From Pseudoalteromonas sp. SSM20 (GTDB taxonomy: Bacteria > Pseudomonadota > Gammaproteobacteria > Enterobacterales > Alteromonadaceae), in the NCBI RefSeq assembly GCF_049257255.1, contig NZ_JBMMUG010000007.1, positions 237,535 through 253,534 of the forward strand: a stretch of 16,000 nt of DNA. Direction: 5' to 3'. Each line of letters begins with the position of its first letter. Position 1 is the first letter of the stretch. The notes beneath the pieces were generated by a model. It saw only the letters and a list, made by a program, of their open reading frames with translations. It was not told the origin of the DNA and did not search any database. The translations under genes and the position numbers were made by a program. Below are positions 1,176 to 16,000 of this stretch, one piece after another.

Positions 1176-2354
1176 TTATTTAAGCTTTAATTTTGCGCTA
1201 AGACCATGAAAAATAACACTTAAAATTATTGTTAAAATTGCACTGTCGATAATTAGCTCAGAAACTGATGTTAGTTCTTGGATTAAAATCAAGGTGAAAA
1301 CTACCGACGCCAAGCCTCTTGGGCCAAACCACGCCAGTAAAATACGTTGTTTAAAAGGTAATGCTGTAAATAGTAATGACACTAAAACAGGCAAAATGCG
1401 CATAATAGTTAACGCTAAAATTGCAAAGATAATGGCGTTTAATTCAACACCATTATGTAAATAGGTGAAGGCAAAATTAGCAAAAACAAACCAAATTATA
1501 AGTGCACAGGTATTTGCAAGAGCATGGGCATTACTTAAGCGCTGTGGTTTGAAGGCAGATTTAAATTTAATATCAAATAATAAACCAGCAATAAACGCGG
1601 CAAAAAATCCACTGCCGCCAAGGGATTGTGTTAGTAGATAAATTAAGACAGCAATAGCGACAAAAATAAAAACTTCATTATCTTTGTTATACAAACGGTA
1701 TTTTTCCGAAAATAACACGACTTTAAAAATAAGCGGACTAACAAAACCTGCTATTAAAGTCGCAATGCCTATTTCCTTTATTGCAATAATCATGGTTTTT
1801 GATAGGTCAGGTGTTTGTTGATTAATCGCTGAATAAAGCAGTAATAAGAATATTGGGACAGCTAAACCATCATTTAAACCACTTTCAACATTAACTGCCT
1901 CACGTGTTTGTTCAGGTATTTTACTATTCTCAATAAAGTTGCTGCTAAGTGCTGCATCTGTTGGAGTTAATATAATTGCAAGCAACGCAATATGAAGAAA
2001 TGGCAGCTCTGAAAAAAGCAGGCTTCCAAGTAGTGAGCCAAGTGCAAATGTAATGGGTAAAGCTACTAATAACAGTAAAAGGGGGTAAGCATAGCTGTGC
2101 TTTAAAACTGCTAATTTTGTTTTAGCAGCATCACTAAATAAAATTAGTGCTAATGTGAGTTCGATATAAATTTGAAATGATGTCAATTCAACATCTATTT
2201 CACTGCTGCCATAAAATACAAAAGAATAAATCAACCCTGCAGTTAACATAAACATGGGGCCAGTAATGCTTAACTGGTGTATGCGCTTGGCAAAGAGTGA
2301 ATAAGCGATGAGTACGCATGTAATTACGACAAATAAAGTGTATGCATTATGCAT
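1176..2354 (-). CDS. Cation:proton (Na+/H+) antiporter, CPA1 / Na_H_exchanger family
   Basis: 392-aa polytopic membrane protein, hydrophobic throughout. It has the ...LLAWFGPRGLASVVFTL... motif typical of NhaP/CPA1 exchangers. Its ATG overlaps the upstream ORF's stop by 8 nt (ATGCATAA on the minus strand). Confidence 0.75.
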   Translation of the reverse strand: MHNAYTLFVVITCVLIAYSLFAKRIHQLSITGPMFMLTAGLIYSFVFYGSSEIDVELTSFQIYIELTLALILFSDAAKTKLAVLKHSYAYPLLLLLVALPITFALGSLLGSLLFSELPFLHIALLAIILTPTDAALSSNFIENSKIPEQTREAVNVESGLNDGLAVPIFLLLLYSAINQQTPDLSKTMIIAIKEIGIATLIAGFVSPLIFKVVLFSEKYRLYNKDNEVFIFVAIAVLIYLLTQSLGGSGFFAAFIAGLLFDIKFKSAFKPQRLSNAHALANTCALIIWFVFANFAFTYLHNGVELNAIIFAILALTIMRILPVLVSLLFTALPFKQRILLAWFGPRGLASVVFTLILIQELTSVSELIIDSAILTIILSVIFHGLSAKLKLK

Positions 2355-3291
2355 AGGTATTTAACTCATTTTCGACAGCTTTAATCATTCTTCTCAATTG
2401 CCTGACTTCATAGCATCCCTCACCGCGTTGCTTATGTAAAAGAGGGGCATTTTTAGATGTTTGTGAACCACGTAACAGTACATATTGTTCGGCCATTTTT
2501 AAACCTAACGAGCATAACGTGAGAGATTGTAATTGCCCATTTTGATAAAAATAAAAAATCTCACTGGAAATATCTAAATGCGCTAATTGGGGATAAAAAC
2601 CATCACCTTGTAAAGAAAATGACTGGAGCATCACATTATTATGTTTTACAAAATAATAGAGAAGTAAATCACGCACACGATGAATGTCATTTTGCCACTT
2701 AGCAAACTGTGATTCGATACATTCATATGATACTTCATTAACCTTACTTGATGGCTTTGTTGTGTTGTTTAACACGCTATCGCGTTTTCTAAGTAACTTA
2801 ATTGGGTTGTCTTTAATTATCTTAGTATCACACAAGTGATTACAAAAATGATTAAGAATTGTATAGGTTGAGGCACGTGATTCGTAACAAGTTGTGGTTT
2901 TGATAAAAGGTCGCCAATGTGGGTTATATACCCTTACGTTTTCAATTAATTTAAAACGAGTTGCCTTTCGGTTCGTTTGCCAATCTTCAGGCGGTGTTTG
3001 TAAGAAGTGCAAATATTCTTTTAATAATGCTTCATCAATATGTGCTAATGTTTGTTTTTTTTGATACCAAAGCCACAACACTAATTTTTCAACTTCATTA
3101 CGATAGCGGTTGTAGCTATTTGTGTTTTGTAAACCAACTGACAATAAATAACGTAAAACAATCATTAAGTCATTGTATTGCTCATCACTAATTTTACTTA
3201 GATGATGATAGTTTTTGCTTTGAAAATGGCTTTGCGCGTAGTCAATTTGATATGGTAGCTGGCAAAAAGTATCAATTATCGGCTTTATCAT
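2347..3291 (-). CDS. Tyrosine-recombinase (phage/ICE integrase)-like protein, apparently catalytically dead and C-terminally short
   Basis: The N-terminal half shows the core-binding pattern of island-type integrases: SYNRYRNEVEKLVLWLWYQKKQTLAHIDEALLKEYLHFLQTPPEDW...NPHWRPF...SRASTYTILNHFCNHLCDTKIIKDNPIKLL. The C-terminal half is only faintly similar (RVRDLLLYYFV..., ...YVLLRGSQ...APLL...). I found no GKG-K hairpin, no HxxR and no terminal Tyr. The ORF ends at 314 aa where the antiporter starts. Confidence 0.5.
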   Translation of the reverse strand: MIKPIIDTFCQLPYQIDYAQSHFQSKNYHHLSKISDEQYNDLMIVLRYLLSVGLQNTNSYNRYRNEVEKLVLWLWYQKKQTLAHIDEALLKEYLHFLQTPPEDWQTNRKATRFKLIENVRVYNPHWRPFIKTTTCYESRASTYTILNHFCNHLCDTKIIKDNPIKLLRKRDSVLNNTTKPSSKVNEVSYECIESQFAKWQNDIHRVRDLLLYYFVKHNNVMLQSFSLQGDGFYPQLAHLDISSEIFYFYQNGQLQSLTLCSLGLKMAEQYVLLRGSQTSKNAPLLHKQRGEGCYEVRQLRRMIKAVENELNTYA

Positions 3292-5971: not shown

Positions 5972-6442
5972 ATGAAAGGAAATAAAGAAGTACTCTCAGC
6001 GTTAAATCAGGTACTTACCCATGAGTTAACGTCTATTAATCAATTTTTTCTACATGCTCGGATGTTTAAAAATTGGGGATTAGAAGAACTTAACGAAAAA
6101 GCGTATAAAAAATCCATCAAGGATATGAAACAAGCGGATGATTTAATCGAGCGAATTTTGTTTCTAGAGGGGTTACCAAACTTACAACACTTAGAGCGCT
6201 TACGTATTGGTGAACACTCGAAAGAAATGCTCGAATGTGACTTAGCAATGCAAATGGATCAAATTCCTTTGTTAAAACAATCAATTGCTTTATGTGAAGA
6301 AAAACAAGATTACGTTAGCCGTGAGCTATTAGAAGAAATTCTAGAATATGAAGAAGATTATATTGATTCGTTAGAAACGCAACTTTCTCTAATTAACAAT
6401 ATTGGTATTGAAAATTACCTGCAAAGTCAGATTGAGGAGTAG
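5972..6442 (+). CDS. bfr: Bacterioferritin subunit, heme-binding type (Met52 present, ferroxidase ligands substituted)
   Basis: Collinear with E. coli Bfr (MKG..V...LN..L..EL..INQ.FLHARMFKNWGL...ERILFLEGLPNLQ...NYLQSQI). E18, M52 and E127 are retained, but E51D, H54Q, E94Q and H130Y are substituted. Confidence 0.9.
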   Translation: MKGNKEVLSALNQVLTHELTSINQFFLHARMFKNWGLEELNEKAYKKSIKDMKQADDLIERILFLEGLPNLQHLERLRIGEHSKEMLECDLAMQMDQIPLLKQSIALCEEKQDYVSRELLEEILEYEEDYIDSLETQLSLINNIGIENYLQSQIEE

Positions 6443-6445
6443 GTT

Positions 6446-6928
6446 ATGAAAGGTAACCAAAAAATTATTGATTTGCTCAATAGACAACTAACGCTTGAGC
6501 TGACTTCAATGGATCAATACCTTGCACATAGCAAAATTTATGAAGATTGGGGTATTGAAAAACTTCACCACCAGTTGTCACATGAATATGAAGAAGAGTT
6601 AGAACACGCTAACAAACTCATTGAGCGTATATTGTTTTTAGAGGGCACACCAGATACAGCATCACGTAAGCCAATAAATGTTGGTAGCAATGTTAAAGAG
6701 ATGCTCGAGAACGATTTAGCTGCTGAACACACAGTGCAAAAAAGCCTAATCGAGATTATTTCTGTTTGTGAAACTGAAAAAGACTATGTAACAAGAGAGA
6801 TTTTAGAAAAACTACTCGATGATACCGAAATGGATCATATTTATTGGTTAGAGCAGCATCTTAACTTGATAAATTTAATTGGCTTGCCAAATTATATTCA
6901 ATCTCAAATGAAGCACGAAACACCATAA
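6446..6928 (+). CDS. bfr: Bacterioferritin subunit, ferroxidase type (all di-iron ligands present, heme Met52 replaced by Leu)
   Basis: Bfr-like throughout. E18, E51, H54 and E94 are retained, plus ExxH (E128/H131, shifted one residue by an insertion). Position 52 is Leu. A strong SD (GAGGAG) lies 6 nt upstream, and the gene starts 3 nt after the stop of the first bfr. Confidence 0.9.
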   Translation: MKGNQKIIDLLNRQLTLELTSMDQYLAHSKIYEDWGIEKLHHQLSHEYEEELEHANKLIERILFLEGTPDTASRKPINVGSNVKEMLENDLAAEHTVQKSLIEIISVCETEKDYVTREILEKLLDDTEMDHIYWLEQHLNLINLIGLPNYIQSQMKHETP

Positions 6929-10026: not shown

Positions 10027-10668
10027 ATGAAAAGCGCCTCATTTATATTTCTGTTATCTACTTTCATTTTTTCATCAAATCTTCATGCTAAAGATAAAAA
10101 TCAATTTATGTATTTTGGTTTAAGTGGCAAGAATCATAATTACAGTGATTTGAATTTTGCACCTACTGTTTCTAAGCAATCACTTGGACAGTTAAAACTA
10201 GAAGAATCAAATAACGCAATTGGCGCGAGACTGCTTTCAGGTTATCAATTTAATCGCTATTTAGCGGTAGAACTTGGCATAACTAATTTTGGTGAAGGGG
10301 ACTTCAAGCTTATCGAGCAAACAACGTCATCCGATGGCAAGAAAAAAACAAATACATTACATAAGGGCGAGTTTAAAACGATAGGCGCTGATATTTCAAT
10401 CGTCGCAACATACCCTTTTTCTGATTCGATTTTTGTTAAAGCATTAGTTGGTTTACAAGGCTGGGACAATCAATTTGATATGCTAGAAAAGGGCAACGAT
10501 AGTTTTAATGTCGTAAGCCAAGATGATCGCGGTGGATCATTACTAACTGGCTTTGGTATAGGTTATGGCGTTAGTAAATCAATGGCATTTACTTTGGATT
10601 TTGAACAAACTGAAATAGCTGAAATTAAAACAAATTCAGTAAGCATAAACTGGTTGTTTCGATTCTAA
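10027..10668 (+). CDS. Small outer-membrane beta-barrel protein (OmpA-like / OMP_b-brl type)
   Basis: Signal peptide MKSASFIFLLSTFIFSSNLHA. Alternating hydrophobic beta-strand pattern with aromatic girdle residues (GARLLSGYQF, AVELGITNFG, ISIVATYPF, LLTGFGIGYGV, FTLDFEQ). The C-terminus is ...INWLFRF with the terminal Phe typical of BAM substrates. Confidence 0.65.
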   Translation: MKSASFIFLLSTFIFSSNLHAKDKNQFMYFGLSGKNHNYSDLNFAPTVSKQSLGQLKLEESNNAIGARLLSGYQFNRYLAVELGITNFGEGDFKLIEQTTSSDGKKKTNTLHKGEFKTIGADISIVATYPFSDSIFVKALVGLQGWDNQFDMLEKGNDSFNVVSQDDRGGSLLTGFGIGYGVSKSMAFTLDFEQTEIAEIKTNSVSINWLFRF

Positions 10669-10671
10669 GAG

Positions 10672-10698
10672 GTAGCGTTACGTAAATTGTAACGCTAC
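10672..10698. terminator. 10-bp perfect hairpin between convergent genes (no clear U-tract)
   Basis: GTAGCGTTAC-GTAAATT-GTAACGCTAC. It lies between the stop of the OMP gene (10668) and the stop of the 201-aa ORF, with its right arm overlapping that stop at 10695-10697. It lacks a T-run on either strand, so terminator function is uncertain. Confidence 0.4.
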
Positions 10699-11300
10699 TG
10701 TGCACTGTTAAGGTTATTTAATAATGTGTGTGAATTAGACACACAATTAAGCTGCGCAGGTGGATAACTTAAAGATCTTTCTAATAAACGAATACACTTT
10801 TTAAGTTGGTCATCATTTAGCTCTGTATTTTTGGCTAAAAAGTCCACACTCTCTAATGCAACAATTTCATGGATAAAGCCGTTAGCTGTGATCACCCCGT
10901 ATTTTCCAGCTAAAAATAACTGCCAATGATCTTGGATACGTTCTTCTAAATTTTCAAAATAGTCTGAATTAAACTCTAAGCCCTTGAGTGACAGGTCGTT
11001 AACGCATTTAGCGTATTGTTGATAAAAAACAGAATACGCTTGTGCAGAACTTAAATCCGAATAGGGTTTTATTAGTTCAATCCACTTTGTGTAACCACGA
11101 GCAAAATATTCTTTTTCTTCATTAAAATCAGTAATGCCAAAAAAAGAACTTGATTGTACTTGGTTTTTTAAATGGTAGGCAGCATTTGGCAATATACATA
11201 AATCAATCCAATCGCTTAATTGCTGTTCTTTAACAAAGGTGTGTGACGCTAACTGTTTCAATGAATAAAAGTAGTTTTCAAAATACTCTGAGATAATCAT
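10695..11300 (-). CDS. Uncharacterised 201-aa cytoplasmic protein, putatively LexA/SOS-regulated
   Basis: Long uninterrupted ORF with no signal peptide or TM segment, and no motif I can place in a named family. No Shine-Dalgarno sequence is visible. The start codon directly abuts the 40-bp palindrome / LexA box at 11301-11340. Confidence 0.6.
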   Translation of the reverse strand: MIISEYFENYFYSLKQLASHTFVKEQQLSDWIDLCILPNAAYHLKNQVQSSSFFGITDFNEEKEYFARGYTKWIELIKPYSDLSSAQAYSVFYQQYAKCVNDLSLKGLEFNSDYFENLEERIQDHWQLFLAGKYGVITANGFIHEIVALESVDFLAKNTELNDDQLKKCIRLLERSLSYPPAQLNCVSNSHTLLNNLNSAQ

Positions 11301-11340
11301 AAGATATATTAACTGTATAAATATACAGTTAATATATCTT
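11301..11340. repeat. Perfect inverted repeat: 19-bp arms with a 2-nt spacer
   Basis: AAGATATATTAACTGTATA-AA-TATACAGTTAATATATCTT. Checked base by base: the reverse complement is identical except for the central AA. Confidence 0.95.
11311..11330 (-). promoter_or_regulatory. LexA (SOS) box
   Basis: AACTGTATAAATATACAGTT matches the gammaproteobacterial consensus TACTGTATATATATACAGTA at 17/20, with the CTGT-N8-ACAG core intact. On the minus strand a possible -10 (TATATT, 11331-11336) and -35 (TTGTAC, 11353-11358, 16-nt spacer) sit just upstream. That places the box at or just downstream of +1. Confidence 0.7.
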
Positions 11341-11444
11341 AATAAAAAAAAAGTACAAGAATTTTTGTATAAGGCCTTTTAGCTACTTACGATCGTCGGT
11401 GTTTATGGTTAAAATGTTGCAAAATTTAACAATGAAAAGAATTT

Positions 11445-12359
11445 ATGACGAACGTTGCCTCAATAAAAAAAGCCAGTTTAATCACCGCAATTAAAACACC
11501 TTATCTTGCTAATGGCGAAATAGACCTAGCAACATACGATGAGCTTGTTGAAAAACAAATTGCAGCAGGTGTTGACGGTATCATTGTTGGTGGTACAACT
11601 GGTGAAGGTCAATTAATGAATTGGGAAGAGCACCTAATGCTAATAGCGCATAGTGTTAACCAATTCAAAAATAAATTACTTATTATTGGTAATACTGGTA
11701 GTAACAATACCAAAGAAGCAATAAAAGCGACTGAATACGGCTTTGCAACGGGTATGGATGCAGCACTGCAAATCAATCCTTATTATGGCCGTACATCAAT
11801 TCAAGGTGTAATTGCACATTTTGAAAAAGTGCTCGAAATTGGTCCTGCATTTATTTACAACGTACCAGGGCGTACTGGTCAAGATTTAACACCTGAAATC
11901 ATTGAGCAACTTGCCCACAGTGAAAATTTTATCGGTGTTAAAGAATGTGCTGGTAATGAACGTATTGCTTATTACGAAAATAAAGGGATTGCCTGTTGGT
12001 CAGGAAATGATGATGAAGCGCACGATGCACGCCATAAAGCAAATGCCCATGGTGTAATCTCTGTTACGTCAAACCTGATCCCATCAGTATTTCGTGAGCT
12101 GATGGACAATGAAAATACTCAGTTAAATAATGAATGCCAACAGCTTATTTCTTGGCTGTTTTGTGAACCAAACCCAATTTCAATTAATACAGCGTTGGCC
12201 TTAACAGGTGCAGTAAAGCCTGTTTTCCGCTTACCCTATGTACCGCTGAATGAAAAACAAATTGAGTTCGGACTTGATTTAATGAGCCATTTTAAAGAGC
12301 ACTTAGTGGGAGATAAACTCACTAAACTTAACCAAAGCGACTTCATTATTACGCCTTAA
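11445..12359 (+). CDS. dapA: 4-hydroxy-tetrahydrodipicolinate synthase (DHDPS/DapA), plant-like sequence type
   Basis: Catalytic motifs are VGGTTGEG (Thr44/45 equivalent), YNVPGRTG (Tyr133/Arg138 equivalent) and IGVKECAG (Schiff-base Lys). Blocks that I recall as typical of plant DHDPS rather than E. coli DapA are LITAIKTPY, GEGQLMNWEEH, IGNTGSNNT, WSGNDDEAHD, GVISVTSNLIP, WLFCEPNPI and PVFRLPYVPL. Confidence 0.9.
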   Translation: MTNVASIKKASLITAIKTPYLANGEIDLATYDELVEKQIAAGVDGIIVGGTTGEGQLMNWEEHLMLIAHSVNQFKNKLLIIGNTGSNNTKEAIKATEYGFATGMDAALQINPYYGRTSIQGVIAHFEKVLEIGPAFIYNVPGRTGQDLTPEIIEQLAHSENFIGVKECAGNERIAYYENKGIACWSGNDDEAHDARHKANAHGVISVTSNLIPSVFRELMDNENTQLNNECQQLISWLFCEPNPISINTALALTGAVKPVFRLPYVPLNEKQIEFGLDLMSHFKEHLVGDKLTKLNQSDFIITP

Positions 12360-15531: not shown

Positions 15532-16000
15532 TTATTTGATAGAATCTAAGTACAAAAACCATTCTCGTTGATATTGTGAAAGTTTTTGATGTTTTTTGCT
15601 TGCTAAGTGTCTCTTTCCATTTTCATCTGAACTATAAGGTCCAACACGACATAGCGCACAATATTTATCATTTATAAATTTAAAAGGTGTAAACACTTTC
15701 AAAATGTCATCGTCTTGCGGTTTATCAGAATAGGCATATATAAAACCTTCTGTGTCTTTTACTTTCTTATCTCTATCCACATTGCGAATTTGATAATCAG
15801 GGAAAAGAGCATAATCAAAAACCTGTTTGCCCATGTGGGTAATATTTGTATCGACAGTTAAATCGGTTTCAATTTGCCAATGAAGATAGGGTTTTACCTC
15901 TTTTGATGTGATGTAACTTAAACGCAATCCATTTTCATCAAGAAAATAATTAAAACACGCCTTTAGGTAATCTCTTAATAAAGCACGATTAACAATGTTT
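15532..16000 (-). CDS. C-terminal part of an uncharacterised protein ending in a C2H2 (U1/zf-met-like) zinc-finger motif; the 5' end lies beyond the right window edge
   Basis: The reading frame stays open upstream of the track's TTG (15927) to nt 16000: ...NIVNRALLRDYLKACFNYFLDENG-LRLSYITSK.... The C-terminus carries KYCALCRVGPYSSDENGKRHLASKKHQKLSQY, i.e. C-x2-C-x13-H-x5-H (nt 15589-15660). Confidence 0.55.
   Translation of the reverse strand, partial: NIVNRALLRDYLKACFNYFLDENGLRLSYITSKEVKPYLHWQIETDLTVDTNITHMGKQVFDYALFPDYQIRNVDRDKKVKDTEGFIYAYSDKPQDDDILKVFTPFKFINDKYCALCRVGPYSSDENGKRHLASKKHQKLSQYQREWFLYLDSIK

Follow-up and report, generated by a model that had tools for sequence, protein, structure and literature searches.

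The closest described systems to the locus analysed here are the SOS promoters of the E. coli type, and the E. coli dinD LexA box, AACTGTATATAAATACAGTT, is an example of their operators. We analysed 16,000 nucleotides of Pseudoalteromonas sp. SSM20 (contig NZ_JBMMUG010000007.1, positions 237,535 to 253,534; this whole stretch is called the window), in which a predicted LexA operator lies next to the start codon of a gene for a 201-aa protein of the Pfam family DUF6058. Like E. coli-type LexA operators this element is a 20-bp palindromic CTGT-N8-ACAG site of near-identical sequence that would overlap the predicted -10 / +1 region, and like E. coli-type SOS promoters the gene is presumed to be repressed and to be released through RecA-stimulated LexA self-cleavage. 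As a regulatory device the predicted operator is of the ordinary SOS type of the Gammaproteobacteria; the novelty lies in the gene that it would regulate and in the recruitment of that gene to the regulon within one clade. New damage-response functions still emerge among lineage-specific members of the SOS regulon, and here a clean genus-wide LexA footprint meets a family with no assigned function or solved relative and with a confidently predicted fold. This is the first regulatory context for DUF6058. The papers searched held no mention of DUF6058 or of a Pseudoalteromonas LexA regulon. The features of the locus are as follows.

10695-11300, minus strand: monocistronic gene encoding an acidic DUF6058 (Pfam) protein of 201 aa (open reading frame, Pfam PF19531, invariant M1 and AlphaFold2 model)
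11301-11310, minus strand: A/U-rich 10-nt stretch AAUAUAUCUU between the operator and the ATG, with no Shine-Dalgarno sequence
11311-11330, strandless: predicted LexA operator (SOS box), reading AACTGTATATTTATACAGTT on the gene strand (sole CTGT-N8-ACAG, position weight matrix and conservation in orthologues)
11331-11336, minus strand: putative -10 TATATT, directly 5' of the LexA box and within the left palindrome arm (direct reading)
11353-11358, minus strand: putative -35 TTGTAC, with a 16-nt spacer to the -10 (direct reading)
11300-11341, strandless: perfect 42-bp palindrome with 20-nt arms and an AA spacer, extending the operator and lineage-specific (repeat search)

The predicted LexA operator and its conservation in Pseudoalteromonas

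The centre of the palindrome (11311-11330) reads AACTGTATAAATATACAGTT and matched the E. coli-type SOS box TACTGTATATATATACAGTA at 17/20 positions with mismatches at positions 1, 10 and 20. Direct reading bore out the initial annotation of the locus, which had been made from the sequence alone and had reported a box with this match and with CTGT-N8-ACAG intact. The CTGT-N8-ACAG motif occurred as a single copy in the 16-kb window against a chance expectation of 0.20, and at least one copy was present in 37/200 shuffled windows. Scoring with a LexA position weight matrix (PWM), a check that had been proposed, gave 22.8 bits for the box as compared to 11.0 bits for the runner-up 20-mer in the window, and 1/200 shuffles attained 22.6 bits. 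Taken alone the single site was strong but not decisive.

We compared the site across 16 distinct Pseudoalteromonas loci (the window, L002, L003, L004, L005, L008, L087, L088, L089/L090, L091-L094 and L096-L098). Boxes were read directly in L002, L003, L004, L005, L008, L087-L090 and L098, and 15 loci were scored by PWM (the window, L001, L003-L005, L008, L087-L089, L091-L094, L096 and L097). A strong LexA box was found 5-29 nt 5' of the start codon in 16/16 loci, as for example TACTGTATATTTATCCAGTA, AACTGTACATATATACAGTT, CACTGTATATTTATCCAGTT and CACTGTATATTAAACCAGTA. Boxes of the scored orthologues reached 19.0-24.1 bits with the next best site of each locus at 10.1 bits or less, and in each of the 15 scored loci the box beat every other site by more than 10 bits. 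Positional orthology was evident from a divergent dapA gene in all loci, usually with a DEAD-box helicase gene beyond dapA and a cytochrome b562 gene downstream. The window protein was 100% and 98% identical to the proteins of loci in a Pseudoalteromonas metagenome-assembled genome and in Pseudoalteromonas sp. G4. When the window clade was set against the main Pseudoalteromonas clade, DUF6058 protein identity was 26-35% as compared to 67-71% for the adjacent DapA, and the DUF6058 gene thus evolves much faster than the neighbouring dapA (11445-12359). This rapid evolution may reflect relaxed constraint or an arms race. Judged by these alignments, the predicted operator is conserved far better than the gene under its control.

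Distant DUF6058 loci were gathered with an 11-sequence subset alignment. CTGT-N8-ACAG was absent from 72 such loci (315 kb), and a LexA box was found upstream of the gene in 0/68, where the best site in the 250 nt upstream scored 6.5 bits. The homologue on a Vibrio nigripulchritudo plasmid also had no LexA box (0/1). The proposal to follow box and gene through orthologous loci therefore had a divided outcome, with the pairing present at 16/16 Pseudoalteromonas loci and absent at the 68 distant loci and the Vibrio plasmid locus. Among the loci compared, predicted LexA control is limited to the Pseudoalteromonas clade.

These data bear directly on whether the box could be an A/T-rich palindrome that arose by chance and regulates nothing. 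The intergenic DNA has a very high A/T content, and the shuffled windows described above show that a CTGT-N8-ACAG, and once a score of 22.6 bits, can arise by chance. Chance does not account for a box at the same position in 16/16 orthologous loci against 0/69 outside the clade despite 65-74% protein divergence, and the conservation data effectively refute this explanation, to which we assign almost no weight. The operator has kept its position through about 70% divergence of the protein, which makes neutrality very unlikely, and we therefore accept LexA control of the DUF6058 gene in Pseudoalteromonas with a probability of roughly 0.8. Very probably the gene takes part in the SOS response and does so specifically in this genus. 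Membership in the SOS regulon, as first suggested, is supported as far as sequence can show by the retention of the box in every orthologous locus while the flanking DNA and the protein diverged heavily.

The arrangement of the predicted promoter was also retained. In the window the operator starts 1 nt after a putative sigma-70-type -10 hexamer. All loci have a -10-like hexamer (TATTAT, TAAGAT, GATAAT, AACAAT, CACAAT or CAAAAT in orthologues) that ends 1-7 nt before the box. A -35-like hexamer precedes it by 16-17 nt (TTGACA in L088, TTGACC in L005, TTGATA in L008 and TTGAAA in L087 and L091). The order of putative promoter, box, 5-29 nt and ATG is kept in every Pseudoalteromonas orthologue examined. 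The earlier placement of the box at the start region of the promoter agreed with this pattern, as a sigma-70-like -10 was always directly upstream of the box. Since the operator directly follows the -10 it would cover the predicted start of transcription together with the first ~20 nt transcribed. In an undamaged cell a LexA dimer on the box (+1 to ~+20) would block RNA polymerase. Upon DNA damage RecA would be activated, LexA would cleave itself and the DUF6058 gene would be transcribed, and the resulting mRNA would carry a short A/U-rich leader of ~25 nt with no Shine-Dalgarno sequence.

Some points weigh against LexA control as read here. The PWM derives from 20 LexA sites of E. coli, and the 22.8 bits of the box lie at the top of, yet within, the 13.4-23.2 bits spanned by these training sites. 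From general knowledge of the Gammaproteobacteria, Pseudoalteromonas would be expected to use the same LexA motif, but the consensus is of the E. coli type and may not be that of the host. The two promoter hexamers proposed in the initial annotation, TATATT and TTGTAC, were indeed present with their 16-nt spacer, but TTGTAC matched TTGACA at only 3/6 positions and a consensus promoter scan called no promoter here. Because this generic scan called none, the promoter assignment in the window rests on position and conservation.

The box might instead mainly serve the divergent dapA or the DEAD-box helicase gene with the DUF6058 gene as a bystander. The dapA gene (11445-12359) passed the TIGR00674 cut-off and shares a 144-bp intergenic region with the DUF6058 gene. 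The box lies within this common region and the pairing of dapA with the DUF6058 gene is kept genus-wide, both of which would fit such an arrangement. The box is however 115 bp from the dapA ATG and ~70 bp beyond the conserved TTTATGGTTAAAA (11402-11414), which resembles a -10 for dapA. In L087 the intergenic region expands to ~430 bp, yet the distance from the box to the DUF6058 ATG is still 6 nt. We consider this explanation highly improbable, and control of dapA was rejected since the box is too distant from it and stays with the DUF6058 gene in L087.

Just upstream of the dapA start, a conserved element GTTTATGGTTAAAAT...AAATTTAACAATGAA (11399-11436) was also found in L003, L004 and L005. 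It contains imperfect inverted repeats (11402-11413 / 11425-11436), and its TTTTAACCATAAA is invariant in four orthologues. This element is unrelated to LexA and probably represents either an operator or the -10 region of dapA.

The 42-bp palindrome and the predicted mRNA leader

The palindrome around the operator has two arms of 20 nt (11300-11319 / 11322-11341) that are 100% complementary and 2 nt apart, and no other long perfect palindrome was present in the 16-kb window. It had been described as a 40-bp palindrome ending before the ATG. The perfect repeat is real, but it is one pair longer on each side and takes in the A of the DUF6058 ATG. The weight that was placed on it did not hold up in the orthologues. 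Twenty consecutive pairs were found only in the window and in two almost identical genomes, L001 and L002 (the L001 upstream sequence is identical to the window and L002 throughout the palindrome), while L004, an orthologue with 86% protein identity, had 13 pairs and the remaining loci had 10 or fewer, that is the bare operator, with the outer arms absent at protein identities of 77% or less. By this comparison the 10 extra pairs per side lie outside the conserved mechanism and are probably a recent lineage-level change.

The difference between the window and L004 is clustered. We counted 2 differences in the 54 nt that run from the -35 through the box as compared to 5 differences in the 6 nt directly 5' of the ATG (TATCTT vs ATGATC), and the TATCTT segment of the window is exactly complementary to the left arm, which holds the -10. 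Intramolecular template switching at quasi-palindromes yields clustered templated changes, and we infer that a template switch perfecting an imperfect palindrome would be the simplest origin. Two observations count against this account. L003 used as an outgroup did not polarise the clustered change, leaving a gain in the window lineage or a loss in L004, and L094 carries an independent outer extension (AATAAACACTGT...ACAGTGTTTATT), which hints that extension might be favoured and not neutral. There may be a selective or mutational bias towards palindrome extension. At positions 605-640 of L094 the extended palindrome around the LexA box reads AATAAACACTGTAT AT AAAAACAGTGTTTATT, and the annotated GTG start of that gene falls inside the right arm and was probably mis-called. 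The palindrome is a small example of an operator extended to a long perfect palindrome within one lineage, and it bears on template-switch mutagenesis and not on regulation.

The leader was considered together with the palindrome. The initial annotation had noted that the gene has no Shine-Dalgarno sequence, and this was confirmed as the 10 nt between the box and the ATG, AAUAUAUCUU, hold no purine run. In most orthologues the gap from box to start codon is likewise 5-14 nt long and A/T-rich, and L005, L093 and L097 have longer gaps carrying purine-rich stretches. By this comparison the missing Shine-Dalgarno sequence is a conserved consequence of an architecture that sets the operator next to the ATG. 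Because the predicted -10 lies within the left arm, the transcript would start inside the box and lack most of that arm. The leader is probably ~25 nt long with its start inside the first bases of the box and would not include the full hairpin. The two alternatives offered earlier, a nearly leaderless transcript or a hairpin that occludes the start codon, are unlikely for this reason.

Regulation at the RNA level has nevertheless some features in its favor. If a 19-20-bp leader hairpin hid the AUG, control of translation or mRNA stability could act on top of LexA. The full hairpin as RNA had a predicted energy of -23.5 kcal/mol with a z score of -5.8 and paired the A of the AUG, and the absence of a Shine-Dalgarno sequence would be in keeping with such a role. 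The only plausible -10 is however inside the left arm, so that the transcript would be without most of it, and the extended hairpin is missing from all other orthologues. Rfam returned only sub-threshold hairpin noise, which we regard as meaningless. On balance we consider this additional layer of control unlikely.

A further alternative is that the full 40-bp palindrome is the functional unit and that a second factor, possibly the DUF6058 protein as a MerR-like autoregulator, binds the outer arms besides or instead of LexA. The palindrome exceeds what LexA needs by 10 bp per side, and L094 acquired its outer extension independently. The N-terminal domain of the DUF6058 protein has a MerR-like beta-alpha-alpha-hairpin-alpha topology in the predicted model, folds of MerR, RacA, CbpM, excisionase and AlpA recur among its weak Foldseek matches, and 5/60 relatives gave sub-threshold MerR_1 matches in Pfam. 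The loss of the outer arms with distance (13 pairs at 86% protein identity and none at 77% or less) is at odds with this idea, as are the acidic protein and N-terminal domain, the lack of any arginine in the putative recognition helix and the lack of a significant fold or sequence match to MerR. We judge a second factor to be very unlikely, somewhat more so than the RNA hairpin, and an autoregulatory MerR operator was rejected on two of these grounds, the unconserved outer arms and the acidity of the protein. The palindrome was also rejected as a terminator or repetitive extragenic palindromic (REP)-like element, having an A/T-rich stem with no T-run and sitting on the promoter.

The DUF6058 protein, its predicted fold and the surrounding genes

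The 201-aa open reading frame opens with the first start codon that follows a stop in its frame, and M1 was invariant in alignments of 7 and 101 homologues, indicating that the start codon is genuine. The gene had been called an orphan, which proved wrong. The protein matched Pfam PF19531 (DUF6058) at 48.2 bits against a cut-off of 25 over residues 88-178, and 60/60 aligned relatives matched DUF6058 as well. Word-based homologue searches with the protein and with the 7-sequence alignment returned six close relatives only. When 1.84 billion representative proteins were searched exhaustively with a profile, 120 clusters at 50% identity were returned, nearly all of 205-230 aa. In Pfam at E <= 10 the window protein matched DUF6058 only, and NCBIfam gave no match. 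Neither database gave a match to RecA, RecN, Uvr, UmuDC, ImuAB, DinB, DinI, SulA, YebG or SbmC, and the window protein and two relatives had no match in PHROGs or PADLOC at E <= 0.1. With DUF6058 as the sole result from these four databases, the earlier statement that the product is none of the classical SOS functions was upheld.

NCBI names the relatives 'DUF6058 family natural product biosynthesis protein'. In L093, L096 and L097 the dapA-DUF6058 pair is adjoined by genes for a ketosynthase chain-length factor, a lysophospholipid acyltransferase, two acyl carrier proteins and an AMP-binding protein, an aryl-polyene-like set, and this ketosynthase / acyl carrier protein / acyltransferase cluster is absent from the window. 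The NCBI label probably reflects adjacency to the biosynthetic cluster and may mislead. No neighbour was consistent among the 72 distant DUF6058 loci, which are metagenomic, so that no function could be assigned from genomic context. Reading these distant neighbourhoods by eye, we noted ABM-like genes in 11, NIPSNAP-like genes in 9, PabB-like genes in 8 and GST-like genes in 6.

The fold was predicted with AlphaFold2 from a 101-sequence alignment, giving a predicted local distance difference test (pLDDT) of 95.2 and a predicted template modelling score (pTM) of 0.89. The model contains a short strand, helices 14-21 and 25-33, a long beta-hairpin 42-67, helix 70-77, a long helix 85-105 and five more helices, which form a MerR-like winged-helix N-terminus (~10-78) and an all-helical C-terminus (85-200). 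The best non-significant Foldseek matches were MerR-family proteins (3hh0, BmrR, NmlR, CueR, SoxR and CvkR), RacA, CbpM, a phage MerR, excisionase and AlpA. The profile and Foldseek look at the protein that had been proposed therefore brought up recurrent MerR-like folds and nothing significant. The window protein did not match the MerR or MerR_1 models even at E <= 10. Relatives matched MerR_1 in 5/60 and MerR in 2/60 cases, all sub-threshold (best E 8.5e-4 and 5.7e-4), and hhalign set the helix-turn-helix in MerR register with a probability of 1%. The N-terminal part may have MerR-type winged-helix topology, the support being consistent but weak.

The isoelectric point (pI) of the protein is 5.0 and that of its N-terminal 80 residues 5.2, with 7 K/R against 10 D/E, and family medians are 5.3-5.6 for the protein and 4.9-5.4 for the N-terminal part. 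With these N-terminal 80 residues acidic, a basic DNA-contact surface on the recognition helix and wing was not found. Across the family, D, E, H, K, R and C were nowhere invariant or near-invariant (at least 90%). An acidic protein with no invariant catalytic-type residue points more to a role in binding or modulation than to catalysis or to DNA binding at specific sequences. We tentatively suggest that the product could be a binding or modulator protein and not an enzyme or a classical DNA-binding regulator. The soluble acidic two-domain product would then bind a protein or a small ligand after DNA damage as a CbpM-like modulator. Foldseek against PDB and BFVD found no significant structural relative with either model (E >= 0.09). 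Against this suggestion, the functional guess rests on charge and on those non-significant fold matches.

PDB sequence and profile searches returned only a marginal Ku segment and collagen NC1 noise. The C-terminal motif of the family (A-V-x-L-L-D...F-A-P-H-E...S-S-R) resembles alpha3 and the following segment of B. subtilis Ku (PDB 9vnq) over 41-43 residues, at an E of 0.007 in hmmsearch and at a P of 2.5e-4 and a probability of 43% in hhalign. The Ku-like segment covers positions 166-208 of the A2 profile and residues ~166-201 of the window protein. The Ku alpha3 helix is a poorly conserved dimer-dimer contact (PMC12784961). We treat this marginal similarity, which is intriguing for a putative damage-response gene, as a lead and not as homology.

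A broader interpretation is that Pseudoalteromonas DUF6058 is an unrecognised genus-wide SOS effector, a fast-evolving acidic modulator derived from a MerR fold that binds a protein or ligand in coping with DNA damage. We hold this to be rather doubtful, more so than the binding role by itself. Its targets may include a repair or recombination factor, a nucleoid protein or a chaperone, by analogy to the action of CbpM on CbpA. If it is true, the weak Ku-like C-terminal motif might reflect a link to DNA-end metabolism.

Some further features surround the gene. At its 3' end lies one additional hairpin.

10672-10698, strandless: perfect 10-bp stem GTAGCGTTAC / GTAACGCTAC enclosing a loop of 7 nt and overlapping the stop codon of the DUF6058 gene (direct reading)

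This stem sits between the DUF6058 gene and a convergent gene for an outer membrane protein beta-barrel (10027-10668). It is a probable shared 3'-end hairpin, and the terminator scan did not call it as it has no T-run. Downstream of the DUF6058 gene, L089-L092, L094 and L096-L098 carry paralogous genes for ribosomal proteins L31 and/or L36 (in L096 and L097 annotated as type B) and an open reading frame of 83-87 aa without a family, and both are absent from the window. Elsewhere in the window, open reading frames at 2347-3291 (minus strand, 314 aa) and 15532-15927 (minus strand, 131 aa) gave no Pfam or NCBIfam match at E <= 0.001. Two others at 5972-6442 and 6446-6928 (plus strand, 156 and 160 aa) are visibly similar and by their translations read as ferritin-like (bacterioferritin-type) tandem paralogues.

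Comparison with known systems

In contrast to Ku, only the helical hairpin aligns with the DUF6058 protein. The beta-barrel core of Ku is missing, Pfam found no Ku domain, and the Ku-like motif is degenerate in the window protein. The likeness to the MerR superfamily extends further. As in MerR proteins, CbpM (3ucs) and RacA (5i44), the predicted model runs beta-alpha-alpha-beta-hairpin-alpha and then into a long helix, and the window protein is acidic as is CbpM, which has a MerR fold and does not bind DNA. Unlike the MerR superfamily, the protein has no significant sequence or fold score, a much longer wing (residues 42-67), an acidic surface without the conserved Arg/Tyr DNA contacts and a six-helix C-terminal DUF6058 domain that has no counterpart there.

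The window protein has the length typical of its own family and carries the family motifs W-Q-x-F-L-x-G-x-Y-G and S-F-F-G. The window subclade differs from the rest of the family in having lost the FAPHE..SSR motif, and the Pseudoalteromonas clade differs from the other DUF6058 loci compared in that it alone carries the LexA box. Unlike E. coli SOS promoters, the controlled gene encodes a DUF6058 protein that is on no known list of SOS functions, the operator is so near the ATG that most orthologues are without a Shine-Dalgarno sequence, and the palindrome of the window strain is extended to 42 bp.

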